From the NCBI GenBank assembly GCA_965218945.1, contig OZ244718.1, positions 2,621,700-2,685,699 of the forward strand: DNA of 64,000 nt. Reading direction: 5' to 3'. Source of the stretch: Dehalococcoidia bacterium. Its GTDB lineage: Bacteria; Chloroflexota; Dehalococcoidia; Lucifugimonadales; UBA2985. The position numbers were made by a program, and so were the translations under genes. Under the pieces are notes generated by a model, which had not been told where the DNA came from, made no database searches, and saw only the letters and a program-made list of their open reading frames with translations. This document shows positions 2-39,038 of this stretch, one piece after another; positions within the stretch are counted from its first letter, which is position 1; each line of letters begins with the position of its first letter.

Positions 2-3000
2 GCGACGACGGCGGCCGAGCCGACGACGTTCGCGGCGGCGGTGGGCGACGAGGAGGTCGTGCTGTCGTGGGACGCGCCGGATTCCGCTTCGGGCGTCACG
101 CGCCACGAGTACCAGTACAAGGAGGGGACCGGGGCCTACCAGGGCTGGGAGCAGATCGCCAACAGCGGGGTGGACGGCGCGAACGAGGCCGGCTTCACGG
201 TGACGGGCCTGACCAACGAGGTCCTCCACACCTTCCAGCTCCGCGCGGTGAACGCCCAGGGCGAGAGCACCGCGGCCGAGGCGGACGCGGTGACGCCGAC
301 GCCCGGCATCTGCGGCCGCACGGCGAAGATCCAGGAGGTGATCCTGGCCGAGCTCGCGGACGTCAGCGAGTGCGCGGCGGTGACCGTGGCCGACCTGGCG
401 TCGATCACGACGTTCGGGCTGAGCGCGCTCGGCACGTTCAACCAGGGGATCACCTCGCTCCAGGCGGGCGATTTCGCGGGGCTGACGGCGCTGACGCAAC
501 TTAACCTGAGTCAAAACCAGCTCACGACGCTGCCCGAGGGGATCTTCTCCGGCCTGACCGCGGTTGAGGGAATCAGCATGGAACAAAACCAGCTGACGGC
601 GCTGCCCGAGGGGATGTTCGCGGGGCTTCCAAATCTGACATTGATCCTATTGACGGGTAACAGTCTCACCGCCATCCCGCCCCGGGCGTTCGCCGGCCTG
701 ACGGGGCTAACAAACATCAGTCTGGGCCTTAACGATCTGACTGCCCTGCCCGCCGGGCTGTTCACCGACCTGACGACGCTGGAAAACATCAGTCTGGCCG
801 ATAACGACCTGACTGCCCTGCCGGCCGGGGTGTTCTCGGGCCTGACGGTGCTGGATACTCTCTATCTGGGCGGAAACGAATTGAGTTCGCTCGACGCCGG
901 GGTGTTCTCCGGCCTGACGTCGCTGGAGCGCCTCGAACTGGATCGCAACGACCTGAGTTCGCTCCCCGCCGGGGTGTTCTCCGGCTTGGCGGCGTTGACA
1001 CGCCTCAATCTGGACGACAACGATCTGAGTTCGCTCCCCGACGGCCTGCTCTCCGGCCTGACGGGGCTGACACGGCTCCAGCTGTTCGACAACCCCAACT
1101 CCGGCGATACGCTGGCGCTGACCGTGACGGTGGAGAAGTTCGGGACCGACCAGGCGCGGGCGAAGGTGCTGGCGGGGGCGCCGTTCGCGGTGAACTTCAC
1201 GGCGACGGTGGTGAACGGTTCGCTCCCGACGGGCGTCACGAAGCTTGCCGTGGCGGCGGGCTCGGTGGAGGGCACGGCGGTCACCGTGACCCGCACGTCC
1301 GGGACGATGGCGGCGGTGACGGTGGACATCGACCTGACCACCCAGCCGACCCTGCCCGAGTTCCACAGTGGCTACGAGTTCGTGAAGGCGACCTCGGGCC
1401 TGCCGGCGGAGATCCTGCCGGACACCAGGGGCCCCCAGAATTTCACCGCCAAGCCGGGCGACGGGCAGGCCGTGCTGTCGTGGACCGCGCCGGCGTCGGG
1501 TTCCGGCGTGACGAAACACCAGTACCGCCAGAAGGAGGGGACCGGGAGCTATCCCGCGAACTGGACTGACATCCCCAACAGCGCGGAGGGCGAGGCGAAC
1601 GAGGACGGCTACACGGTGCCGGGCCTCACCAACGAGACGGTATACACCTTCGAGCTCAAGCGGTTCGTCGGCACGACCGAGAGCGCGACGGCGGAGTCGA
1701 ACGCGGTGACGCCGACGCCCGGCATCTGCGACCGCACGCAGCAGGTGCAGGACGGCATCCTGGCCGGGCTCGCGGACGTCAGCGACTGCGCGGCGGTGAC
1801 CGTCGCCGACCTGGAGAGTTTCACGGCCTCCCTGGAGTTTGCGGGTGAGGACATCGCGTCGCTGAAGTCGGGCGACTTCGCGGGGCTGTCGAACCTGGAT
1901 GTCCTGGAACTTTCCAGAAACACCTTCACCACGCTTCCCGCGAACGTGTTCTCCGGCCTGACGTCGCTGACAAGCCTGAAGGTGTCAAACGGCGAGCTGA
2001 GTTCGATCGACGCCCGGGCGTTCTCCGGGCTAACGGCGCTGGAAGTACTCAAACTGGATACCAACGACCTGGATTCGCTCCCCGGGACCGTGTTCTCCGG
2101 TCTGACGACGCTGATAACCCTCGAGCTGAACGGTAACGACCTGGCCTCGCTTCCCGGGACCGTGTTCAATGGCCTGTCGGCGCTGCATACTCTTCATCTG
2201 CAGAGCAACGATCTGGAAACGCTCCCCGCCGGGCTGTTCTCCGGCCTGTCGGCGCTGTCAACCCTCACACTGGCCGATAACGATCTGACTGCGATCCCCG
2301 CCCAGGTGTTCTCCGGCCTGTCGGCGCTGGAAATCCTCAATCTGAGCGACAACGACCTGAACTCGCTCGACGCCGGGGTGTTCTCCGGCCTGAGCAATCT
2401 GCGATCCCTGTCGCTGCGAAACAACCAACTGAGTGCGCTCCCCGACGGGCTGTTCTCCGGCCTAACGGCGCTGACTGGTCTCAATCTGAGCGACAACACC
2501 ACCAACCCCATGCCGCTCACGGTGACGGTGGAGAAGTTCGGGACCGACCAGGCGCGGGCGAAGGTGCTCGCGGGGGCGCCGTTCGCGGTGGAGTTCACGG
2601 CGACGGTGGTGAACGGTTCGCTCCCGACGGGCGTCACGAAGCTTGCCGTGGCGAAGGGCTCGGCGGAGGGCACGGCGGTCACCGTGACCCGCACGACCGG
2701 GACGATGGAGGCGGTGACGGTGGACATCGACCTGAGCACCCAGCCGTCCCTGCCCGACAAGCACGAGGGCTACACCTTCGCCCGGGCCTCGGACCTGCCG
2801 GCGGAAATCCTGCCGGCGGAGGCGTCGCTGGAGCCGCCGACCGGCCTCAGCGCCACGCCCGGCGACCGGCTGGCGGTTCTCACCTGGACCCCGCCGGCGT
2901 CGGATTCGGGCTTCACGCGCCACCAGTACCGCTACGGGACGGACGGAGACTTCGTGGACTGGACGGATATCCCCGACAGCGGGCCGGGCGAAGCGAACGG

Positions 3001-6000
3001 GTCGCGGTACACGGTGACGGGGCTCGACAACGCGGTTGAGTACAGCTTCGAGCTGCGCGCGCGGGACGCGGGCGCCGGTAGGAGCCACGCGGCGACGGTG
3101 GCGGTGACGCCGGAGGGTCCGCCGCGGATCCTCTCGGTCGAGGTGACCTCGGTTCCGGTCCTGGACAACGAGACCACCTACGGCGCGGGCGAGGAGGTCG
3201 ATATCTCGGTGACCTTCGACCAGCCGGTGGTGGTCGAGGGCGCCCCGCAGCTCGTGCTCGACGTGGACGGATCGCGCCTGGCGGAGTACCACGAGGGCAG
3301 CGGCAGCAACACGCTGGTGTTCGCCTACGTGGTGACGGAGAGCGACCGAGATACCGACGGCGTCTCGGTCGGCGACAACGCGCTCCGGCTGGACGGCGGC
3401 GACGTCATCCGCAACGGCGCGGGCGACGCCGCCGAGCTGGACCACGAGGGGCTGGGCCAGCAGTCCGGCCACATGGTGGACGGCGGGCGGCGGGCTGGCG
3501 TGCACGATCACGGCGAGTTCACCCACTCGCATTCGCATTCCAGGCAACAGTATCCCGAGCACACGCACGAGGGCCACGAGCACCCCGACGAGGCCAACGA
3601 CCACAAGCGCCGGCCCGGGACGCACGTGCACCACGCGCAGGAGGACCTGAATGCGGAAATCTCCGGCGGCCCCGACCTGCGCGGGCACGACAATGTCGAG
3701 CACACGCACCTCTGCTATGACCTGAAACCCTCGTGCAACCAGGGCGACCTCTACAGCGAGCGGGGCGACGAGCTGGGGCTGCCGATCGAGGTGACCCATT
3801 CCCACGAGCACTCCGAGCCGGGCCACCGCTTCGACTGGCGGGCGTTCTTCGAGGGAGGCGGGTCCGGCGCGACGGTGTCGGTGGCGGACGCGGTGGCGGT
3901 GCGAGGCGAGGGCCGCACGCTGGACTTCGAGGTGAGCCTGGAGCCGGCGGTGGCGTTCGCGGTGCGGGTGGACTACGCGACGGTGGACGGCACGGCGACC
4001 GCGGGCGAGGACTACCGGGAGACGTCGGGCGTGCTGGAGATCCCGCCCGGGCAGACGCGCGGGACGGTGTCGGTGCGGATGCCGGCGGACGGGCCGGGGG
4101 ACGGCCCGGAACTGTTCGAACTGACGCTGGGCTCCGCCACGGCGACGACGGTGGCGGACGGCGAGGCGACGGGCACGATCCTGACGCCGGGGCCGTCGAC
4201 GCCGCCGGTGATCGAGAGGATCGCGGTGGCCTCGACGCCGCGGCTGAGCTCGGACGGCAACTGGAAGGACACCTACGGCGAGGGCGAGAACATCCGCATC
4301 GAGGTGACCTTCGACCAGCCGGTGGTGGTGGTGGGCGACCCGACGTTCGCGCTCGAGGTGGGCGACCCGTGCGAGTCGGTGTGCGAGGCCGACTACGAGT
4401 CGGGGAGCGGCGCGGACACGCTGGTGTTCGCGTACCTGGTGCTGGAGGTCGACGTCGACCGCAACGGCGTCGCGATCCGCGGCAACCCGATCGAGGTGGT
4501 GCTCGGCGACAGCATCCGCAACGCGGCGGGCCAGGAGGCGGACCTTTCCTCCAAGGGGAAGGGCACGCAGCACAACCACAGGGTGAACGGGTCGCGGTCG
4601 GCGGCGGCGCACCTGTCGGTGGCGAACGCCGAGGCGCGCGAGGCCGACGGCGAGATGACGTTCACGGTGCGCCTGGAACCGCACGGGCTGGGCATCGTGA
4701 CGGTCAACTACGCGACGAGCGACGGCTCGGCGCGGGCGGGCGAGGACTACACGGAGACGGGCGGCAGGCTGAGGTTCAATTCGCTGGAGACGGAGCGGAC
4801 GGTGACGGTGCCGATCACGGACGACACCGAGCCGGACGACGGCGAGACGTTCACGCTTACGCTGTCGAACCCGGACGGCGCGAAGATCAGGGCCGGCGAC
4901 GGCGAGGCCACGGGCACGATCCACAACAGCGAGCCGCAGGAGGCGCTGACGGCGTCCTTCGAGGACGTGCCGGCGGCGCACGACGGCGCCGCGTTCCGGT
5001 TCCGGGTGGCGTTCAGCGAGGACATCGGCATCAGCTTCCAGGCGCTGCGCGAGGACGCGTTCGCGGTGACGAACGGGCGGATCACGGACGGGGTGCCGGT
5101 GGACGACCGGCGGGACCTGTTCGATATGACGCTGGAGCCGGACGGCGACGGCGACGTGGCGGTCACGCTTGAGGCGGACCGCGACTGCGCGGAGTCCGGG
5201 GCGATCTGCACGAAGGGCGAGCCGCAGCGGCGGCTGACGACCACGGTGTCGGCGATGGTGGCCGGCCCGGACGGCGCGGCAAACGCCCCGGCCACGGGCG
5301 CGCCGGCCATCGCGGGCAGGCTCCGGGTGGGGGAGATCCTTTCCGCCCTGACCTCGGGCATCGCCGACGAGGACGGGCTGGAGGAGGCGGAGTTCGCCCA
5401 CCAGTGGCTCCGCGGGGACGCGGACATCGCCGGCGCCACCGGCTACAGATACACCCTGGCCGATAGCGACGAGGGCAGGACCATCAGGGTAAGGGTGACC
5501 TTCACCGACGACGCGGGCAACGAGGAGTCGCTGACCAGCGCACCCACGGAGCCGGTGTTGGAGGAGCCGGTGTTTGGGGACGGCCCGCCGGGAGCGCCGC
5601 GCAACCTCACCGTCACCGCCGGAGACCAGGAGGTCACCCTGTCCTGGGAGCCGCCCGACGACAACGGCAACGCGCCCGCGACGAGATACCGCATCGAGTG
5701 GAGGATAGACGGCAAGGACTACAAAAAGGGGCATTGGGGCCCATCGGGAGAGACTACCTATACGAAGACCGACCTGGCCAATGGAGTGAAGTACATCTTC
5801 CGGGTAAAGGCCGAGAACGGCAACGGCAACAGCTACGGACCATACGGACCGGCCTCTGAGGAGGTGAGCGCCACCCCTACGTCCGGCTCGGCGGTGGACC
5901 TGGGCACGCCGGTGCTGTCGAACACGAAGACCCTGCATCACGGCATGGTGAAGCTGGACTGGGAGGACGTAGAGGACGCCGGTTGGTATGTAGTCCAGTA

Positions 6001-7804
6001 CTACCACGTCAAAGGTGGGGAGTGGCTGGACCTGCCCGCCGCCGGAGTGGACATCGCGTTCCACGGTTCGAGCGCGGTGGTGAGCAACCTGCATGGGCTC
6101 TCGTGGCTGAGGGTTCGAGCGATGAGCTGTGCCGGAGAATCGGAGTGGTCGCAGATCGAGGAGTTGTACGGGACCAACGCATCGGACTGGGAGGGCGTGC
6201 CCGTGCCGGAGGTGGAGGAGGGCGACGAGATCGAGCCATGCCCCGTGATCCTGGGCACGCCGGTGCTTTCGAACACGGAGACCCTGCATCACGGCATGGT
6301 GCAGCTGGACTGGCAGGACATTGAGGACGCCGGTTGGTACGTGGTCCAGTACTACCACGCCAAAGGTGGGGAGTGGTTGGATCTGCCCGCCGAGGGAGTG
6401 GACATCGCGTTCCACGGGTCAAGCGCGGTGGTGAGCAACCTGCATGGGCTCTCGTGGCTGAGGGTTCGAGCGATGAGCTGTGCAGGAGCATCGGAGTGGT
6501 CGCAGATCGAGGAGTTGTACGGGACCAATGCATCGGACTGGGAGGGCGTGCCCGTACCGGAGGTGGCGGAGGGCGACGAGATCGAGCCGTGCTCCGAAGA
6601 CGCGGACACATCTGACAACACACCAGCCACCGGAGTTCCCACGATCAGCGGGACCGCCCAAGTCGGAGAGACCCTGACGGCGAACACGTCTGGGGTCGCC
6701 GACGCCGACGGCCTAACGAACGCCACCCACAGATACCAGTGGCTTGCGGACGACGCTGCAATCGCGGGCGCTACCGGCTCGACCTACACCCTTGCCGATA
6801 GCGAAGAGGGCAAGGCCATCACGGTGCAGGTGAGCTTCACCGACGACGCGGGCAACAATGAGACGCTGACCAGCACGGCCACGGACGCAGTGGCGGCAGC
6901 GCCCACGCCCAACAGTCCGGCCACCGGCGCGCCCACCATCAGCGGGACGGCCCAGGTGGGCGAAACGCTCACGGTGGACACGTCGGGGATCGCCGACGCC
7001 GACGGGCTTAGCAACGTCCAGTACGAGTACCAGTGGCTGGCCGACGATACCGAAATCGCGGGGGCTACAGGCTCCACATACACCGTGGCCGCCGCTGACG
7101 AAGGCAAGGCCATCAAGGTCCGAGTCACCTTCACCGACGACGCGGGCAACGAGGAAACGCTGACCAGCGCAGCGACGGCAGCCGTGGCCGGTGCGCAACC
7201 CACGGAGCCGCCCGCCAGGCCCACGGGCCTCTCGGCCACGGCGTCCCACGACTCGGTGACCCTCACCTGGGAAGACCCCGGCGACGACACCATCACCGGC
7301 TACGTGATCCTGCGGCGCGTCCGCGTGAACAATACCGGGGGCGACTTCAGTGAACTGGTGGCGGACACGGGCACAGCGGCGACCACCTACACCGACGACA
7401 CGGTGGCTGCCGGCACCACTTACACCTACCGTATCAAGGCCATCAACGGGGCCGGAACGAGTGAACGCTCGCGCTGGTTCCACATCGACACTCCGGCAGC
7501 GCCCGTACCCGATAAGCCCACGGGCTTGTCCGCCACGGCGTCCCACGACTCGGTGACCCTCACCTGGGAAGACCCCGGCGACGATAGCATCACCGGCTAC
7601 GTGATCCTGCGGCGCCTCCGCTACGACGACCCCTCGGGCCACTTCGATGAGTTGGTGGCGGACACGGGGACGGCGGCGACCACGTACACCGACGATACGG
7701 CAAAGGCCAACACTCACTATACCTACCGGATCAAGGCCATCAGCGGGGCCGGGGTGAGCGAGCGTTCCCGCTGGTTCCACATCCAGACCCAGGAGGCCCC
7801 GTAG
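2..7804 (+). CDS. Giant secreted/surface multi-domain protein, 5'-truncated by the window edge (FN3, two LRR blocks, Ig-like, His-rich, two Calx-beta, four ~95-aa beta repeats, duplicated C-terminal FN3)
   Basis: The reading frame is open from position 2, with no stop upstream of the GVDE... residues at 41. FN3-like 'VLSWxAPxxxSGVTxHxYxxKEG...Y.F.LRA' units recur. There are two blocks of ~24-aa 'LxxLxLxxNxLtxLPxGxFxGL' leucine-rich repeats. Two 'DYxxxxGxLxFxxGxTxxTVxV' Calx-beta-like units are present. Stop is TAG at 7802-7804. Confidence 0.8.
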   Translation, partial: ATTAAEPTTFAAAVGDEEVVLSWDAPDSASGVTRHEYQYKEGTGAYQGWEQIANSGVDGANEAGFTVTGLTNEVLHTFQLRAVNAQGESTAAEADAVTPTPGICGRTAKIQEVILAELADVSECAAVTVADLASITTFGLSALGTFNQGITSLQAGDFAGLTALTQLNLSQNQLTTLPEGIFSGLTAVEGISMEQNQLTALPEGMFAGLPNLTLILLTGNSLTAIPPRAFAGLTGLTNISLGLNDLTALPAGLFTDLTTLENISLADNDLTALPAGVFSGLTVLDTLYLGGNELSSLDAGVFSGLTSLERLELDRNDLSSLPAGVFSGLAALTRLNLDDNDLSSLPDGLLSGLTGLTRLQLFDNPNSGDTLALTVTVEKFGTDQARAKVLAGAPFAVNFTATVVNGSLPTGVTKLAVAAGSVEGTAVTVTRTSGTMAAVTVDIDLTTQPTLPEFHSGYEFVKATSGLPAEILPDTRGPQNFTAKPGDGQAVLSWTAPASGSGVTKHQYRQKEGTGSYPANWTDIPNSAEGEANEDGYTVPGLTNETVYTFELKRFVGTTESATAESNAVTPTPGICDRTQQVQDGILAGLADVSDCAAVTVADLESFTASLEFAGEDIASLKSGDFAGLSNLDVLELSRNTFTTLPANVFSGLTSLTSLKVSNGELSSIDARAFSGLTALEVLKLDTNDLDSLPGTVFSGLTTLITLELNGNDLASLPGTVFNGLSALHTLHLQSNDLETLPAGLFSGLSALSTLTLADNDLTAIPAQVFSGLSALEILNLSDNDLNSLDAGVFSGLSNLRSLSLRNNQLSALPDGLFSGLTALTGLNLSDNTTNPMPLTVTVEKFGTDQARAKVLAGAPFAVEFTATVVNGSLPTGVTKLAVAKGSAEGTAVTVTRTTGTMEAVTVDIDLSTQPSLPDKHEGYTFARASDLPAEILPAEASLEPPTGLSATPGDRLAVLTWTPPASDSGFTRHQYRYGTDGDFVDWTDIPDSGPGEANGSRYTVTGLDNAVEYSFELRARDAGAGRSHAATVAVTPEGPPRILSVEVTSVPVLDNETTYGAGEEVDISVTFDQPVVVEGAPQLVLDVDGSRLAEYHEGSGSNTLVFAYVVTESDRDTDGVSVGDNALRLDGGDVIRNGAGDAAELDHEGLGQQSGHMVDGGRRAGVHDHGEFTHSHSHSRQQYPEHTHEGHEHPDEANDHKRRPGTHVHHAQEDLNAEISGGPDLRGHDNVEHTHLCYDLKPSCNQGDLYSERGDELGLPIEVTHSHEHSEPGHRFDWRAFFEGGGSGATVSVADAVAVRGEGRTLDFEVSLEPAVAFAVRVDYATVDGTATAGEDYRETSGVLEIPPGQTRGTVSVRMPADGPGDGPELFELTLGSATATTVADGEATGTILTPGPSTPPVIERIAVASTPRLSSDGNWKDTYGEGENIRIEVTFDQPVVVVGDPTFALEVGDPCESVCEADYESGSGADTLVFAYLVLEVDVDRNGVAIRGNPIEVVLGDSIRNAAGQEADLSSKGKGTQHNHRVNGSRSAAAHLSVANAEAREADGEMTFTVRLEPHGLGIVTVNYATSDGSARAGEDYTETGGRLRFNSLETERTVTVPITDDTEPDDGETFTLTLSNPDGAKIRAGDGEATGTIHNSEPQEALTASFEDVPAAHDGAAFRFRVAFSEDIGISFQALREDAFAVTNGRITDGVPVDDRRDLFDMTLEPDGDGDVAVTLEADRDCAESGAICTKGEPQRRLTTTVSAMVAGPDGAANAPATGAPAIAGRLRVGEILSALTSGIADEDGLEEAEFAHQWLRGDADIAGATGYRYTLADSDEGRTIRVRVTFTDDAGNEESLTSAPTEPVLEEPVFGDGPPGAPRNLTVTAGDQEVTLSWEPPDDNGNAPATRYRIEWRIDGKDYKKGHWGPSGETTYTKTDLANGVKYIFRVKAENGNGNSYGPYGPASEEVSATPTSGSAVDLGTPVLSNTKTLHHGMVKLDWEDVEDAGWYVVQYYHVKGGEWLDLPAAGVDIAFHGSSAVVSNLHGLSWLRVRAMSCAGESEWSQIEELYGTNASDWEGVPVPEVEEGDEIEPCPVILGTPVLSNTETLHHGMVQLDWQDIEDAGWYVVQYYHAKGGEWLDLPAEGVDIAFHGSSAVVSNLHGLSWLRVRAMSCAGASEWSQIEELYGTNASDWEGVPVPEVAEGDEIEPCSEDADTSDNTPATGVPTISGTAQVGETLTANTSGVADADGLTNATHRYQWLADDAAIAGATGSTYTLADSEEGKAITVQVSFTDDAGNNETLTSTATDAVAAAPTPNSPATGAPTISGTAQVGETLTVDTSGIADADGLSNVQYEYQWLADDTEIAGATGSTYTVAAADEGKAIKVRVTFTDDAGNEETLTSAATAAVAGAQPTEPPARPTGLSATASHDSVTLTWEDPGDDTITGYVILRRVRVNNTGGDFSELVADTGTAATTYTDDTVAAGTTYTYRIKAINGAGTSERSRWFHIDTPAAPVPDKPTGLSATASHDSVTLTWEDPGDDSITGYVILRRLRYDDPSGHFDELVADTGTAATTYTDDTAKANTHYTYRIKAISGAGVSERSRWFHIQTQEAP
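5900..6601 (+). repeat. Near-identical tandem duplication (2 x 351 bp, 117 aa each) inside the giant CDS
   Basis: 5900-6250 and 6251-6601 both start 'ctgggcacgccggtgct'. They encode 'LGTPVLSNTxTLHHGMVxLDWxDxEDAGWYVVQYYH...' with only scattered substitutions. Confidence 0.85.
7220..7801 (+). repeat. Near-identical tandem duplication (2 x ~297 bp) of the C-terminal FN3 domain of the giant CDS
   Basis: Both units begin 'cccacgggc..tc.gccacggcgtcccacgactcggtgaccctcacctgggaagaccccggcgacga', at 7220 and 7517. Confidence 0.85.
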
Positions 7805-7988: not shown

Positions 7989-8116
7989 CAGGGCTACGGG
8001 TTGGACTGGCTGTGGGCGCTTGCGCTCCGCACACCGTCCTGTAAGGGGATTGCGGACGGCCCGGACATCGCAGTTGGAGGAGATTGCAGCCGTCCTGCGG
8101 AAGGACCGGCGATTCC

Positions 8117-8362
8117 ATGCCGAGACAGCGCATACACCACACCAGAGAGACCTACGACTTCCCCGACGACTTCCCTGAGCGGCTGAAGCGGTTCAAGGAG
8201 GAGTCGGGCCTGACGTGGGCGGAGCTGAATCGGCGTCTCGGCACCCATCCCTACACCATGAGGCGCTGGAGGGATAAGGTGGTTCGGCCCAGCACGCGGC
8301 ACATGATAGCGCTGCTGAAGCTGGCGAACTCGCTGGACCTCGGCCACATATTCACCGAATAG
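8117..8362 (+). CDS. Small helix-turn-helix protein, paralog of 36943-37269
   Basis: ATG at 8117 inside ORF 8084-8362. 'FPDDFPERLKRFKEESGLTWAELNRRLGTHPYTMRRWR' aligns with 'LPDDFGQRLERLKEASGLSWRGFAKALGVDPKQLRLWR' of the second copy. Confidence 0.6.
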   Translation: MPRQRIHHTRETYDFPDDFPERLKRFKEESGLTWAELNRRLGTHPYTMRRWRDKVVRPSTRHMIALLKLANSLDLGHIFTE

Positions 8363-8435
8363 GGAGGCGGCGCCTCGGCGATGGCCTGCGATCCCCAGGG
8401 GCTTAAACGCAAAAAGGGCTGCATACATGGACGTG

Positions 8436-8512: not shown

Positions 8513-8995
8513 TTAGAACAACCTCAACGACTCAGGCTCCTGCTGGTCTGCCTCTCCCTCGGTGGCCTCGGCCTGGGCCGCACCTTGCGAACGCCGTGGC
8601 TGACGCCTGACCGGGGAAGCGGGTCTCGCGTGCGCCGGATGCTTGGGTTCGTCCTCCCACCTGGCTCTTGCCCTTTCGACCACCGCCGGGACCTCCTGGG
8701 TCAGCCCGGATAGGTCAGGGTCATCGAAGGACTCGATGTGCGGGTCCGCCGAGGGCTGTTGCACCCCGATGGTGGCCCGGACTCCCTTGATGGACACCAC
8801 GACCTTCAGGTCCTCAGGCCCATCGATCTGCTCCTCGCCGTCCTCAGCGCCCTGAGGGTCCTGTTCGATCTCCTCGTTGTCTTTCAGTTCGTCGGCAACC
8901 GCAGCGGCTGCGTCGTCCGCCGCGTCGCCGAAGAGACTCTCGTCTGCGCTCGGGGCATCCGAGCGGGTTGCTTCCGTTCCAGTTTCGTCAGGCAT
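8513..8995 (-). CDS. Acidic hypothetical protein, last gene of the minus-strand block
   Basis: 160-aa ORF with D/E-rich termini and a central 'LKVVVSIKGVRATIGVQQP' segment. I recognise no family. Confidence 0.5.
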   Translation of the reverse strand: MPDETGTEATRSDAPSADESLFGDAADDAAAAVADELKDNEEIEQDPQGAEDGEEQIDGPEDLKVVVSIKGVRATIGVQQPSADPHIESFDDPDLSGLTQEVPAVVERARARWEDEPKHPAHARPASPVRRQPRRSQGAAQAEATEGEADQQEPESLRLF

Positions 8996-9047: not shown

Positions 9048-9420
9048 CTAGGCCGCTGTCCATCGCGACTGTCTCCTGATCTCGCCGAGGGTCTGCGGCT
9101 CCCAGTACAGGTCGCGCTCCACGGCGGGAACCTTTCCGAACACGGTTACTTCCGCCATCTCCGTGAGGTCGAAGTAGCCCAGTTCAGTCTCGAACCCTTC
9201 GACGAGGCCGAAGCACAGTCCGGTCTCGGGGTCCCACTCGGTGATGTACCAGCGCCAGCCGTTGTAGGGGGAGAACAGCTTCACCCTGGCAACGACGGCG
9301 TCGGGGTCGTCCGCGCCGTCATTGGCGTACAGGGGCGGGATCGTGTCGGCGAGCTCCTTGGTCATCAGCTTGTGTCCGCGGCGCTCGCTGTGGTTGTCCT
9401 TCCAGGTCGTGGTGGTCATC
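9048..9420 (-). CDS. DUF2958-family protein (common ICE/plasmid accessory protein)
   Basis: An internal ATG at 9420 gives 'MTTTTWKDN...IPPLYANDG...VKLFSPYNGWRWYITEWDPETGLCFGLVEGFETELGYFDLTEM...VERDLYWEP'. This matches the DUF2958 pattern I remember (LY..., FF.P...WtWY.tE, fGlV.G.e.ElGYfsl.EL). The upstream part of ORF 9048-9878 looks off-frame. Confidence 0.8.
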
Positions 9421-9475
9421 GCGTTTCCTTTCTCTTCAAGCATTGGTTTTCTGCTTGTTCCTTCTCTGATTGCGT

Positions 9476-10296: not shown

Positions 10297-10914
10297 TCAG
10301 GTTACCTCCTTGTCGTTGAAGTTGGTGTTGCGGGTCGGGTTAGGGCCGGAGAACACCTGCGGCCACTCCACCGGGGCGAAGTGGCCGTAGACCCCGACCC
10401 GGAGACGCAGCTCGGGCCGAAAGTCATCGAGGCGTCCGACGACCCCGTAGATGCGGAAGCCCTGCTCGTCCCGGTCGTCGGTGGCCGAGAAGAAGGCGCG
10501 GGAGCTTCCGTGGGAGTGGAACTCGGCGACCACGCCGGCAGGGGGCCGGTAGGTGAGGGACGCCGCGGTCCCAACCTGCGCGGGCGCCACCAGCCGGTAG
10601 GCGCGCCCGTCCCAGCGCACTGCGAAGAGCCGCTCGGTGTCCGGGGCGTCCTGGAACCAGCGCATCCCCTTCTCGAAGAGGCGCGCCGGGATGGGGCCGT
10701 TGGGCAGCGCCACCTTTTCGTCAACGGGAGCGAGCCCCCGCACCTCGCCGGGGGCCACCATTACCCGCGCCACCAGGTCAGCGCTCTGGGACTGGACGTA
10801 GACGCCCCCTGATCCCAGAACGTAGTCGTAGCCGATTCCCTGGACTCCGGCGAGTCCGGCGGGGTGGTTAACCAGGTAGCCCACCGGCCCCGGCGCCCCG
10901 CTAGCGGTAGCCAC
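10297..10914 (-). CDS. JAB/MPN (JAMM) metallopeptidase (PRTRC protein A-like)
   Basis: Intact JAMM motif 'EFHSHGSSRAFFSATDD' (HxHx7SxxD). I chose the GTG at 10914, which overlaps the upstream stop by 14 nt. The longest ORF extends to 10995. Confidence 0.8.
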   Translation of the reverse strand: MATASGAPGPVGYLVNHPAGLAGVQGIGYDYVLGSGGVYVQSQSADLVARVMVAPGEVRGLAPVDEKVALPNGPIPARLFEKGMRWFQDAPDTERLFAVRWDGRAYRLVAPAQVGTAASLTYRPPAGVVAEFHSHGSSRAFFSATDDRDEQGFRIYGVVGRLDDFRPELRLRVGVYGHFAPVEWPQVFSGPNPTRNTNFNDKEVT

Positions 10915-11605
10915 GTCTCCCCTCGGAGACCGCCATCGCCTGGCCCACCGTGCATTGGGGAACAAGGTCTTCAATCGGGTATGCAGTCTGTCCATCTAGC
11001 TCCTCCCATAGCGCTTGCAGGTTGTCGGGGTGCCTCTTCGAGCGGTCCCGGGTGTCTCCGGTAAGCGAGAAGAATGACCGGAAGAAGGACTCAGGCATCA
11101 GCCCAACCTCCTCGGGGAACCGGTGGCTTCCGGGGCAGACCCTCCCGTCTCTGAAGACGTTGAAGGCCGGGGCCCGGAAGAGGTGCTGCTCTGGGTCGGT
11201 CGGTCGGCCCGTTGCTGCGTAGACCCAGGGCGTTCGGCCCGGCGAGCAGACGAAGACCAACCCCGGCATGGGAAGCCGGAGCCGGGCGGGTGGCTTGAAC
11301 GCCTCCCGTTGCAGGGCCACCGACCACACCTGCGGCGGCCGCCACAGGGCCACCACCTGCCCGGTCTCGCCCTGGTTCCACCAGAGGGCGTCCTGGGGCA
11401 GCAGCCCCGAGGAGGACCCCAGGTGCTGGGTGAACACGTTGGCGATGGCGTCCGCCGAGACGGTCCTGACCCAGTTTGAGTCGTTCTCAAAGCCCCGAAG
11501 CAGGATGGTCTCCTTGTACACCTCCAGCTGCATCTGGATCTCGTCCTTTGCCGCATCCGCCGGACCCGGCAGGGACCATTCGGTCTTTTCGGCATCACTC
11601 GTCAT
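10901..11605 (-). CDS. E2/UBC-like protein (PRTRC protein B-like)
   Basis: 234 aa with a candidate catalytic-Cys segment 'FNVFRDGRVCPGSHRFP'. It sits between the F-position gene and JAB, as in PRTRC cassettes. The assignment rests on position and motif recall, not on a search. Confidence 0.65.
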   Translation of the reverse strand: MTSDAEKTEWSLPGPADAAKDEIQMQLEVYKETILLRGFENDSNWVRTVSADAIANVFTQHLGSSSGLLPQDALWWNQGETGQVVALWRPPQVWSVALQREAFKPPARLRLPMPGLVFVCSPGRTPWVYAATGRPTDPEQHLFRAPAFNVFRDGRVCPGSHRFPEEVGLMPESFFRSFFSLTGDTRDRSKRHPDNLQALWEELDGQTAYPIEDLVPQCTVGQAMAVSEGRRGYR

Positions 11606-12434
11606 CGTTTACCTCCTTTTCGTGATTGGGGAGCCGCTCCAGCGTGAAGTCCAGCATCTCGGCGAAGCGGCCGGGAAGGTCCTCCTCCAGCCAGTCGGCC
11701 AACCGGGTCACCGAGTCGATGAGGGCGCTGGCCTCGCGCCACTCCTCCGTGCCCGCATCGATGACCTCCTCCTCCCAGGGGTCGGAGAAGCCGTCGTAGT
11801 TCCCGTCCTCATAGCAGGCATCCAGGAAGAAGTTGCCCGTCTCGGCAAAGACCCAGGAGCAGGCCTGCGCCGCCCCCTCGAACCGGGTCTCCTTGAGCGC
11901 GTCGGTGAGGTCGTCCAGGGGTATGCCCCCCTGGGGAATTCTCTCCAATGTCTCCTGCGGGATGCGTTCGGCGGCCGACTCCAGCCAGGCCACCCGCAGC
12001 CCGTCGGGTCCGTCGTGGTAGGTGTCGGCGGGCTTGGCCAAGAGGACGAGGGACGAGATCCCCTCGCGGTAGCCGTCCCACATCTCGTGGAGGCCGTCGT
12101 AGCCGAAGCCCATCAGGTCAAAGGGGATGCCCTGCCTCAGCCAGGTCCAGGGAGGTTGGTCCCCCTCCTCCTCCGTCCAGAACTCGATGAACGGGGCGTA
12201 GAGGGGGAAGTGCCGCTCTCCGAAGAGCTGGCCGAACCGTTCCACCCTCGTGCGTATGTCTGGGGCCGCCAGCGCCGCATCCGCCTCCTGGGGAAAGAGG
12301 CGGCGCGCCAGCCCCGCGAACCATGCGTAGTCGTCGGCGTATCCGACCAGCGTGACCAGCTCCCGCAGCGACGGCGGACGCCGCAGGAGCAGTCCCGCCA
12401 GCCCGCTCAGTTGCGGCGGGGCCGCAGCTGCCAT
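11595..12434 (-). CDS. Hypothetical acidic protein in the PRTRC protein F position
   Basis: 279-aa ORF overlapping both neighbours (11 nt and 28 nt). No motif recognised. Confidence 0.55.
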   Translation of the reverse strand: MAAAAPPQLSGLAGLLLRRPPSLRELVTLVGYADDYAWFAGLARRLFPQEADAALAAPDIRTRVERFGQLFGERHFPLYAPFIEFWTEEEGDQPPWTWLRQGIPFDLMGFGYDGLHEMWDGYREGISSLVLLAKPADTYHDGPDGLRVAWLESAAERIPQETLERIPQGGIPLDDLTDALKETRFEGAAQACSWVFAETGNFFLDACYEDGNYDGFSDPWEEEVIDAGTEEWREASALIDSVTRLADWLEEDLPGRFAEMLDFTLERLPNHEKEVNDDE

Positions 12435-12637
12435 CGCAGCGCCTCCAGTAGCCGCCCCGTGGAGGCGGCGTAGTCCTGGGCCTGGAAGCAGGCCATCTCC
12501 ACCTCACCCTGCCGGGCGGCCGCGGCGTCCAGGTCGAAGGAGCCGTCGGGCCGTGTGAGCTCCGCCGTGAGCTCAAGGATTCTCAGGTCTGCCGGCGGCG
12601 TTGCCGCCATCAGACCGGCAAAGGTCCGGTTGTCCAT
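12407..12637 (-). CDS. Small hypothetical protein (76 aa)
   Basis: The ORF starts 12 nt downstream of the Ubl stop, on the same strand, and its composition is coding-like. Confidence 0.4.
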   Translation of the reverse strand: MDNRTFAGLMAATPPADLRILELTAELTRPDGSFDLDAAAARQGEVEMACFQAQDYAASTGRLLEALRWQLRPRRN

Positions 12638-12649
12638 CGGATGCCTCCT

Positions 12650-12856
12650 CTAGTTCCAGGCGTGGGGGAAGGCGCCCTTGGTGCCCACCCGCCGCTGGAA
12701 CTCGTAGATGGTGTCGTCGCCCCGCGTGGTCTCCTTGACCGAGGCGTTGGCGATCTCCCCGTAGAAGTCGCTCAGCGTTGCCTTCACCTGGTCGACGCTC
12801 ATCTGGGGGTCCGGGTCGGGGAACTCTCTGTCGTCGTATACGAATACTCTTGCCAT
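12650..12856 (-). CDS. Ubiquitin-like beta-grasp protein (PRTRC protein C-like)
   Basis: ATG at 12856 with GAAAAGGAG upstream. 'MARVFVYDDREFPDPDPQMSVDQVKATLSDFYGEIANASVKETTRGDDTIYEFQRRVGTKGAFPHAWN'. It matches the remembered PRTRC-C pattern (F.Y.g..lpDPdP.ms.e.Vk..y...yp.i..A........y.F.r.vGtKG). Confidence 0.8.
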   Translation of the reverse strand: MARVFVYDDREFPDPDPQMSVDQVKATLSDFYGEIANASVKETTRGDDTIYEFQRRVGTKGAFPHAWN

Positions 12857-17999: not shown

Positions 18000-18509
18000 T
18001 CAGGGCATCAGCCCCCGTTCCTTGAGGCTGACGAACCGCTCGCCGCCGATGACCACGTGATCCAGCAGCTCGATGTCCAGCAATTTGCCCGCCTGGACCA
18101 GATCGCGGGTGAGGGCCGCGTCCTCGGGGCTAGGCGTCGGGTCCTGGCTGGGATGGTTGTGGCTGATAATGATGCTGGGGACGGCCTCGATGACCGCCGG
18201 GCGGAAGACCTCGGCATTCCTCACGATGGCCGAGGACACGTTGCCCTGGTAGATGACCCGCTGACCCACAACCTGGTTCCTGGCGTTGAGAAGCAGCACC
18301 CGCATCTGCTCCTGGGCCAGGGGAGCCATCTCCGGCCCCAGCAGCCTGCGCACGTCGTCGGGGCAGGAGATGACGGGTAGGTCTTCCGTGGGGCGCTCCG
18401 GGTGGAACTCCACGTCGTAGCGCGCCGCCAGCTCTCCCAGCAGGTTCAGGTTGCTGCGAAGCGCCTCAAGCAGCGCGGCGTCCTTGGTGGTGGTCTTCTT
18501 CATGGTCAT
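18000..18509 (-). CDS. radC: RadC-family JAB-domain protein
   Basis: 'IISHNHPSQDPTPSPEDAALTRDL...LLDHVVIG' is the canonical RadC JAMM motif. AAGGAGG lies 5 nt upstream of the ATG. Confidence 0.9.
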   Translation of the reverse strand: MTMKKTTTKDAALLEALRSNLNLLGELAARYDVEFHPERPTEDLPVISCPDDVRRLLGPEMAPLAQEQMRVLLLNARNQVVGQRVIYQGNVSSAIVRNAEVFRPAVIEAVPSIIISHNHPSQDPTPSPEDAALTRDLVQAGKLLDIELLDHVVIGGERFVSLKERGLMP

Positions 18510-37694: not shown

Positions 37695-38834
37695 CTAGGT
37701 TGTAAGGTAGTCCGCCCACTGCTGCATCAGCGCACGTCTCCGCACGAAAAGGTCGGACCTTGCGTACGCCTGCTCGACACTGCCTCCGAGCTGGTGGGCT
37801 AGGGCCGCCTCCGCAACCGCCCAGGGCGCGTCCGTCTGCTCCATTGCCCATGTCCTGAAGGATGTCCTGAAACCGTGCACCGTCGCTCGCTCCGCGAGAC
37901 CGGTCGCACGGAGTATCTTCGTCAGCGTCATGTCGCTCAGCATCCGGCCGCGGAGCAGGGGCGAGGGGAAGCATAGCCCCGACCCGTCTTCCAGACCCCG
38001 GGCCAGCATCAACACTCCCAGCGCCTGCTCGCTCAGGGGAACCCGGTGCTCTTCGCCCGCCTTCATGCGGGAGCCGGGTATCGTCCACGTCGCGCCCTCC
38101 ATATCAATCTCATCCCAGGTGGCGCCCCTCGCCTCACCGGAGCGCGCCGCCGTGAAGACCAGGAAGGCCAGGCAGAGCTTCGAAGCGGGTGAGGTCTGGG
38201 ACTCATCAACGGTCCTGAGCGCCGCGCCCACCTCATCGTAGGGGAGCGCCCTGAGATGCGCCTTCACCTTGGGCATCGACGGCAGGGCCCCGTCTATGGC
38301 CTCACCAGCAGGGTTGCTCTCAATGAGCTCGTTGGCCATGGCCCACCTGAATATGGTTCGCATCCTCTGGCGGACGCGCCGTGCTGTCTCGGGGCGTGTC
38401 GACCATATCGGTGTAAGGACCGACAACAGGTCTGAGCGCCTTATGGTGTCGATGGGTTTGTTCCCGATCCTGGGGAAGGCGTGGCGCTGCAGCGTCTGGA
38501 TCCACGCAGCCGCGTGGCTCCCGTTGCGCCAGCGGGGCCTGTTAGCCTCGTGCACGGCGCGGGCGGCCTCCCTGAATGTAGGCATCGCCGGCCTGTGTTT
38601 CTCCGCCACCGGGTCCTTTCCATTCTCAACCGCCTCGCGGTTGTCCAGGGCGCGCTTCCTGGCCTGGGCCAGGGACACCGTGGGATACCCGCCCAAGCCT
38701 ATGTCCCGCCGCAGGCCGCCTATGACTATCCTCTGCACCCAGCTCTTGCTGCCTGTCTTGGTGATGAAGAGGTGCAGGCCGTCCCCGTTCGAGTGGCGGC
38801 CCGGTTTGCGTAGAGCCTTCACCTCTGTTGCCAT
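37695..38834 (-). CDS. int: P4-type tyrosine integrase
   Basis: N-terminal arm-binding 'GDGLHLFITKTGSKSWVQRIVIGGLRRDIGLGGYPTVSLAQARKRA'. Catalytic residues appear in 'TAARSGEA', 'HGFRTSFRTW' and 'ALAH....VEQAYARSD'. Probable start is 'MATEVKAL' at 38834. Confidence 0.92.
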   Translation of the reverse strand: MATEVKALRKPGRHSNGDGLHLFITKTGSKSWVQRIVIGGLRRDIGLGGYPTVSLAQARKRALDNREAVENGKDPVAEKHRPAMPTFREAARAVHEANRPRWRNGSHAAAWIQTLQRHAFPRIGNKPIDTIRRSDLLSVLTPIWSTRPETARRVRQRMRTIFRWAMANELIESNPAGEAIDGALPSMPKVKAHLRALPYDEVGAALRTVDESQTSPASKLCLAFLVFTAARSGEARGATWDEIDMEGATWTIPGSRMKAGEEHRVPLSEQALGVLMLARGLEDGSGLCFPSPLLRGRMLSDMTLTKILRATGLAERATVHGFRTSFRTWAMEQTDAPWAVAEAALAHQLGGSVEQAYARSDLFVRRRALMQQWADYLTT

Positions 38835-39038
38835 TAGCTTCACGCCCAGTGACCTCCTCAATCTTTTACCACACAAATTACCACATTGTTGGCGAGACAA
38901 CAAGGGCTTTTGGGGGTAAGCGAGGGAGGCCGAATTCAGCCAAGTTAAGCCTTGTGTACACCTAACCTAGCTATGAAACAGAGGCATATTGAGACGTGTG
39001 CTGACCGATGGAGAATGGAGGAGACGGGGAGGGGAAAG

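Follow-up and report, generated by a model that had tools for sequence, protein, structure and literature searches.

The question raised by this locus is how a ubiquitin-like protein (Ubl) can be activated through its conserved C-terminal glycine when its gene continues for seven codons behind that glycine. The gene lies in a 64,000-nucleotide stretch of Dehalococcoidia DNA (contig OZ244718.1, positions 2,621,700 to 2,685,699; from here on "the window"), in a cassette that also encodes E1-like, E2-like and JAB/JAMM metallopeptidase homologues. On the evidence of sequence comparison the encoded 68-residue protein is probably a pro-Ubl that is cut by the cassette JAB after Gly61, activated by the E1, conjugated to targets and released again by the JAB. 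That some protease takes off the tail is likelier than this whole chain of events, and the assignment of the cut to the cassette JAB is somewhat less certain. The sequences show the anatomy of the gene, its pattern of conservation, the C-terminal states across the family and the intact catalytic motifs, whereas we infer that the tail is cut, by which protease this is done, and that the Ubl is conjugated to targets.

The Ubl and its C-terminal tail

The open reading frame (ORF) at 12650..12856 on the minus strand encodes 68 amino acids with the translation MARVFVYDDREFPDPDPQMSVDQVKATLSDFYGEIANASVKETTRGDDTIYEFQRRVGTKGAFPHAWN, followed by the stop codon. Its start, MARVF, is backed by homologues and by an AAGGAG motif 8 nucleotides upstream, and the gene is present in a single copy within the window. 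The protein matched the NCBIfam model TIGR03738 (PRTRC_C) with 50.0 bits at a cut-off of 45.95, residues 2-61 being aligned with positions 6-66 of the 66 model positions. The match to Pfam Prok_Ub (PF14454) reached 58.5 bits at a cut-off of 25 and ended at residue 59, which corresponds to the last of the 64 model positions. Since neither model extends past Gly61, the residues AFPHAWN lie outside the family domain. Thus, ORF translation and family models bear out the initial annotation, which had placed seven residues behind the terminal GTKG (residues 58-61, window 12674-12685). G58, K60 and G61 were invariant across the Ubl alignments A1, A2 and A7.

An AlphaFold2 (AF2) model of the Ubl with a predicted local distance difference test score (pLDDT) of 72 contained β-strands at residues 3-7, 10-13, 39-45 and 48-54 and an α-helix at residues 21-31. 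This is the β-β-α-β-β order of the beta-grasp fold. Residues 58-68 were modelled with a pLDDT below 50. According to the model, the C-terminal arm after residue 54 is flexible or disordered and resembles the C-terminus of ubiquitin. The top Foldseek matches obtained with the model were UBL domains, SUMO and ubiquitin, none of them significant (all E>0.1, template-modelling score about 0.5). A profile search of the PDB with the Ubl matched no solved structure.

Evolution of the tail in close relatives

Close relatives of the Ubl were analyzed as 120 protein clusters (identity of at least 78%) and 80 genomic loci (L001-L080). A tail followed GTKG in 120 of 120 clusters and in 79 of the 80 Dehalococcoidia loci; in L028 the script could not locate GTKG. 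With about 200 close relatives carrying it, the tail is no sequencing accident. It comprised seven residues in 60 of the clusters and ten in 29, and the others had 4, 5, 6, 8 or 9 residues, apart from a few long read-throughs.

The ratio of nonsynonymous to synonymous substitution rates (dN/dS), determined according to Nei and Gojobori from 61 unique 68-amino-acid coding sequences, was 0.13 for residues 2-61 of the body and 0.89 for residues 62-68 of the tail. Over GTKG a dN of 0 was obtained from the same sequences, and positions 64, 65, 67 and 68 were the most variable ones in the whole protein. In the window the stop codon of the Ubl is followed by the Shine-Dalgarno sequence of the next gene, termed gene X, whose ATG at 12635-12637 lies 12 nucleotides past the stop. 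The Ubl genes of relatives stop before, at or past this Shine-Dalgarno sequence, which gives tails of 4 to 10 residues. This wandering of the stop codon indicates that the tail is a translated part of the spacer before gene X. Taken together, the sequence data support a tail that acts like a discarded propeptide. No selection for retention of the tail was demonstrable in this clade. The lack of tails shorter than 4 residues may be mere inheritance, since the clade is young (proportion of synonymous differences, pS, 0.29).

C-terminal forms across the Prok_Ub/PRTRC-C family

A profile built from 39 diverse Ubl bodies recovered 1119 proteins, and 114 new best matches were examined. Among these, 86 were 61-residue proteins that ended exactly with GTKG. 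Moreover, G-x-K-G was the C-terminus in five of seven sampled plasmid genes annotated at NCBI as "PRTRC system protein C". The glycine is thus commonly the true C-terminus, which fits the residue adenylated by an E1. The initial annotation had expected PRTRC-C proteins to end at or very near GTKG. This was found for the majority of the proteins mentioned, but it is not universal. Protein C of Caballeronia NK8 continues for 9 residues past G-x-K-G, and that of Polaromonas sp. JS666 plasmid 2 (L092, 5965-6405), a protein of 146 amino acids, carries a partly low-complexity extension of 72 residues after GTKG; short tails, fusions and tandem repeats also occur. Nor is the tail a peculiarity of the gene in the window, as all of the about 200 close Dehalococcoidia relatives carry tails, with 4-10 or more residues.

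A wider survey, in which a search of 50%-identity cluster representatives was combined with domain mapping, revealed four C-terminal states around the invariant motif: tail-less proteins, short tails of 1-12 residues, long extensions and tandem repeats. Ubl bodies with 85-92% identity differ in this state. When 77 relatives with long extensions were scanned with Pfam for fusion partners other than X, only DUF5679 and DUF6166 were named, once each. The contigs of P0141, P0143 and P0183 were too short to provide gene context.

One recurrent extension is homologous to gene X. A profile of X matched the C-terminal extensions of 27 retrieved Ubl sequences (E<1e-3), nearly all of them from separate 50%-identity clusters, and also a standalone gene of 81 amino acids in locus L085. 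In L084 the Ubl-X fusion (8001-8417) is part of an operon that is otherwise identical to that of the window, and the close relative L077 likewise encodes an in-frame Ubl-X fusion. Locus L085 encodes a tail-less Ubl of 61 amino acids, followed by a DUF2958 protein and a free-standing X. No match to the X protein of the window was found in Pfam, NCBIfam, PADLOC or PHROGs. The fusions provide a Rosetta-stone link between the Ubl and X, which is free-standing in the window and in L085.

Head-to-tail poly-Ubl proteins of 3-7 units were found in 12 cluster representatives. Every junction contains GTKG, often with MAR as the beginning of the following unit, and the polymer closes with a short cap, as in ...GTKGN. 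Close poly-Ubl relatives were detected by tblastn in three Bacillus jumbo phages (217-234 kb). The poly-Ubl genes of L091, L081 (8001-8861) and L089 (7001-7876; 229-kb contig) each contain five Prok_Ub units with a ThiF E1 encoded a few genes downstream, the latter two genes, on long contigs, sharing cassettes with ThiF. The gene in L091 (7001-7900; LC597490.1, 178788-179687) is gp211 of phage vB_BceM_WH1, which is annotated as "virion structural protein". In L081 Pfam recognized Prok-E2_D and a JAB-containing protein between the poly-Ubl and the ThiF E1. Neither the poly-Ubl nor the Ubl-X forms can expose the glycine of each Ubl without cleavage, which supports a cleavage step in this family.

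Eukaryotic ubiquitin genes encode capped polyubiquitin and fusions of ubiquitin with ribosomal proteins. The Prok_Ub/PRTRC-C family likewise comprises capped monomers, fusions to a downstream protein and capped head-to-tail polymers, in addition to tail-less genes. In contrast, it is a different Ubl family, and its putative processing would depend on a JAMM enzyme instead of the mostly cysteine-dependent deubiquitinases of eukaryotes. We tentatively propose that the family mirrors the eukaryotic precursor forms and that one JAMM resolves all of them after G-T-K-G, a possibility to which we give slightly less than even chances. If so, mobile elements and phages would have used ubiquitin-type precursor processing, polyubiquitin-style genes included, repeatedly and since early times, and it would not be a eukaryotic invention; the fusion would suggest that X is the first client of the Ubl or its stoichiometric partner. 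The different C-terminal states around one invariant G-T-K-G constitute a natural experiment that supports cleavage at the Gly and bears on the evolution of ubiquitin gene architectures. Fusions and poly-Ubl genes are more novel than the capped monomer of the window, which is expected and will not surprise a specialist. A literature search yielded no description of these family-wide precursor architectures and no paper on phage poly-Ubl.

Comparison with known systems

Type 6d of Iyer, Burroughs and Aravind (2006, Table 1) combines a small Ubl that has a conserved Gly at its C-terminus with a JAB, an E1, an alpha-helical protein and an E2 in which a His follows the Cys. The authors predicted for this type that the Ubl is processed as well as taken off by the JAB. 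The window matches type 6d, as it encodes a small Ubl with conserved Gly, a JAB, an E1-like protein, an E2 with C157...H161 and a positional counterpart of the helical protein. It shares with PRTRC (TIGR03735-03742)/6d the TIGR03738 Ubl family, the order Ubl...E2, JAB, ThiF and the mobile-element setting. In contrast to PRTRC, the A, B and ThiF proteins of the window score below the equivalog cut-offs, although the Pfam domain models pass, and most annotated protein C genes are tail-less. Using tblastn with the L084 ParB and the domains of the scanned ORFs, a non-exhaustive search, no ParB-related gene was found in the window. The scores below cut-off together with this result suggest that the cassette is a diverged relative of the proteobacterial PRTRC cassette and not a strict member.

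Three characterized systems offer parallels for the proposed processing. In Caldiarchaeum subterraneum a neighbouring Rpn11-like JAMM removes a 9-residue propeptide from ubiquitin, whose precursor does not react with E1 (Hennell James et al. 2017, PMC5654768). Similar to the window, with its seven residues, a short propeptide follows the reactive Gly, and E1, E2 and JAMM are encoded alongside. However, the archaeal system employs a true ubiquitin with a Gly-Gly end and a RING E3, whereas the window encodes a Prok_Ub protein with a G-T-K-G end, a family D E2 and no recognized E3.

In the Bil system BilC trims BilA to expose the C-terminal Gly and also acts in deconjugation (Chambers et al., bioRxiv 10.1101/2023.09.26.559546). 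Both Bil and the window encode Ubl, E2, JAB and E1 as separate components. Bil defends against phages and has a multi-domain E1 (IAD-AAD-CYS), whereas the E1 of the window is a minimal ThiF protein encoded on a conjugative element. In Type I Bub, BubCD cleaves BubAB immediately after a conserved Gly (Ye et al. 2024, PMC11601596). The release of a fused Ubl by a JAB parallels the Ubl-X fusions of the family described here. Bub differs in having the E2 as fusion partner, a JAB fused to the E1, a Ser E2 and a DUF6527 protease, none of which was seen in the window. Consequently, the principle of pro-Ubl trimming is not new: it has been proven for Caldiarchaeum, Bil and Bub and was predicted for type 6d in 2006. 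PRTRC/6d cassettes are common on plasmids, integrative conjugative elements and jumbo phages. If cleavage and E1/E2 activity held, this widespread cassette would be a true conjugation system, which would open the search for its targets.

Proposed maturation and alternative explanations

In the proposed maturation pathway the beta-grasp body (residues 1-54) would bear the flexible arm RRVGTKG, and the seven residues past Gly61 would block the carboxylate that the E1 adenylates. The cassette JAMM would cut the Gly61-Ala62 bond and free AFPHAWN, so that the precursor would lose 823.4 Da; the C-terminal peptide of the processed protein would be VGTKG, the alternative form being VGTKGAFPHAWN. The E1 would then activate Gly61 and hand the Ubl to a Cys, either its own or Cys157 of the E2, for conjugation to targets. 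The same JAB would probably also undo the conjugation. The tail would have no sequence-specific role and would persist because processing makes it harmless; at most, it would make activation dependent on the JAB.

Every comparative test agreed with the pro-Ubl interpretation of the initial annotation, as far as sequences can tell. This includes the composition of the junctions. Pro was found at P1', the position directly behind the Gly, in none of 191 distinct junctions, versus 43 of 801 residues (5.4%) at P2'-P6' (naive binomial probability about 3e-5). A small residue (A, G, S, T, V or C) occupied P1' in 58% of the 191 junctions. Gly-Pro bonds in ubiquitin fusions resist deubiquitinases, and by analogy such resistance may extend to the cassette JAMM.

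Several observations weigh against the proposed pathway. The junction counts are phylogenetically non-independent, the 50%-identity representatives over-sample long proteins, and some of the long extensions are frameshift artefacts (e.g., P0130 and P0002-P0005). The AF2 model of the JAB, for which 37 close homologues were used, was poor, with a pLDDT of 54. Ala-Phe at the beginning of the tail shows fair conservation within the clade, which may be due to short divergence or to a P1'/P2' preference. The cassette of L085 contains a JAB although its Ubl is tail-less; thus, the presence of a JAB is no proof of a processing role. Finally, a literature search returned no mechanistic or experimental paper on PRTRC/6d and, for none of these systems, direct evidence that the Ubl is cleaved or conjugated.

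The missing reports of conjugation in any PRTRC system would also suit a neutral tail that is never removed, the Ubl acting non-covalently as an adaptor or as a partner of the E1 or X, or the cassette being in decay. Neutral evolution of the tail is equally expected of unprocessed junk, and A, B and ThiF scores below the curated NCBIfam cut-offs mark the cassette as diverged. Nevertheless, we consider this explanation unlikely, as the Ubl body is under strong purifying selection with an absolutely conserved GTKG, and the catalytic Cys, the JAMM motif and the adenylation motif do not vary. Moreover, P1' excludes Pro, poly-Ubl genes would be hard to understand if they were not cleaved, and the element is multi-copy and widespread and not decaying. 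Nothing in the sequence of the cassette suggests decay. Quite unlikely as well is removal of the tail by a different enzyme, either a host protease or carboxypeptidase or the RadC-like JAB, whose HNHPS motif is intact and whose gene lies on the same element at a distance of 5 kb, with the cassette JAB acting only in deconjugation. Such a division of labour would be in line with the occurrence of a JAB where no processing is needed, as in L085. However, in all three characterized systems trimming is carried out by the cognate JAB/JAMM of the operon, and the cassette JAB accompanies poly-Ubl or Ubl-X in cassettes of phages and plasmids from widely differing hosts, which points to a self-contained system.

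We regard it as extremely improbable that the tail is an artefact, caused by a wrong stop codon or a sequencing error, or that programmed readthrough or frameshifting yields a Ubl-X fusion. Gene X is indeed in frame with the Ubl in the window, where TAG, 12 nucleotides and the ATG of X follow one another, and one close relative, L077, encodes such a fusion. But about 200 independent sequences retain the stop after 4-10 tail codons, and X has its own Shine-Dalgarno sequence and ATG. Readthrough or frameshifting to a fusion was rejected because of the distance between stop and ATG, which is 4 or 10-16 nucleotides (most commonly 13), so that the frame is not conserved.

Cassette enzymes and neighbouring genes

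The genes of the cassette are arranged on the minus strand in the order Ubl, X, 279-amino-acid protein, E2-like protein, JAB, ThiF E1, DUF2958 protein and 160-amino-acid acidic protein (Table 1).

Table 1: Positions of the Ubl, the other cassette members and a second JAB-superfamily protein in the window.
Feature	Position	Strand	Remarks
Ubl body (residues 1-61, C-terminus RRVGTKG), predicted mature form	12674..12856	-	PF14454 and TIGR03738
Tail AFPHAWN, seven codons; predicted propeptide	12653..12673	-	Beyond both family models
Stop codon TAG of the Ubl gene	12650..12652	-	Abuts AGGAGG
Shine-Dalgarno sequence AGGAGG of gene X	12644-12649	-	Directly after TAG
Gene X, 76 amino acids, conserved cassette member	12407..12637	-	Fused in frame behind GTKG in relatives
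279-amino-acid protein, no family match	11595..12434	-	Position of the "novel alpha-helical protein" of type 6d
E2-like protein (Prok-E2_D/PRTRC_B-like)	10901..11605	-	PF14460, 67.9 bits (cut-off 25)
JAB/JAMM metallopeptidase (PRTRC_A-like), candidate processing enzyme	10297..10995	-	PF14464, 26.9 bits (cut-off 25)
E1-like ThiF-family adenylyltransferase, 272 amino acids	9476..10294	-	PF00899, 48.8 bits
DUF2958 protein, start approximate	9048..9443	-	PF11171; same domain adjoins the Ubl in L085
160-amino-acid acidic protein, position of PRTRC protein E	8513..8995	-	tblastn with the 148-amino-acid protein of L084, E 3e-12
RadC-like second JAB-superfamily protein	18000-18509	-	PF04002, E 9e-37; intact HNHPS

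The scores of the three enzymes against the corresponding NCBIfam models were 68 bits for the E2 (TIGR03737, cut-off 131.45), 59.5 bits for the JAB (TIGR03735, cut-off 101.8) and 100.9 bits for the E1 (TIGR03736, cut-off 144.75). Cys157 of the E2 is invariant, and His161 is present in three of four distant relatives. The JAB motif E-x-H-x-H-x7-S-x2-D (E158, H160, H162, S170 and D173) was invariant in 37 close and 3 distant homologues (24-58% identity). A Foldseek search of the PDB with the JAB model gave weak local matches to Rpn11, CSN5 and Caldiarchaeum Rpn11 (probability 0.4-0.66, about 55 residues) amid noise, and the PDB sequence search with a JAB profile returned only chance matches to nanobodies. 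In the E1, the GxGGxG loop, D121, C119 and C200 are invariant in distant relatives. Its nearest solved relatives, all of them distant, are MccB, UBA5, Uba4 and BubCD. Among the PADLOC models only the CBASS "E1-E2" models were matched, by the Rossmann segment of the E1 (residues 10-82, approximately). For the Ubl, E2, JAB and X no match to PADLOC (defence) or PHROGs was obtained.

The start of the JAB is ambiguous. Translation may begin with the ATG at 10995, giving 232 amino acids and an overlap of 95 nucleotides with the end of the E2 gene, or with the GTG at 10914, giving 205 amino acids. Homologues have been called in both forms (195-216 and 232-243 amino acids).

The 279-amino-acid protein is homologous to proteins of 284 amino acids in L084 (E 7e-59) and 308 amino acids in L085 (E 9e-23) that occupy the same operon position. 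The L084 protein used to detect the 160-amino-acid acidic protein is encoded downstream of ThiF. The acidic protein itself matched no Pfam or NCBIfam model. With regard to the PRTRC proteins D, E and F, neither the 279- nor the 160-amino-acid protein had an NCBIfam match, and both are positional analogues only. In P0170, a sequence of 132 amino acids, Ubl residues 1-41 are joined to the C-terminal part of a homologue of the 160-amino-acid protein. Either the assembly is chimeric here, or a deletion has removed X, E2, JAB and E1.

The conjugative element and its host

An integrative conjugative element of approximately 31 kb (window 8000-38900, approximately) carries the cassette at one of its ends. 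Upstream of the Ubl, at higher coordinates, the element encodes an SNF2 helicase, a DUF6094 methyltransferase, the RadC-like protein, a TSCPD protein, Rad52 and a DnaG-type primase. These are followed by the genes for TrbL/VirB6, a VirB4/TraC-like ATPase, a coupling protein, a relaxase and a tyrosine integrase (37695-38903). All 80 retrieved loci originate from Dehalococcoidia metagenome-assembled genomes, often with several copies per chromosome (e.g., at least five in OZ244741.1). This element family has strongly proliferated in the Dehalococcoidia lineage. The Ubl cluster P0006 comprises 1029 member sequences.

Genes for a host protein of 2587 amino acids with leucine-rich repeat (LRR) and fn3 domains and for an ABC transporter flank the element. 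The ORF of the former, at 41-7804 on the plus strand of the window, borders the element and contains many LRR, fn3 and Calx-beta domains. Eukaryote-like repeat proteins of this kind have been reported from symbiont genomes.

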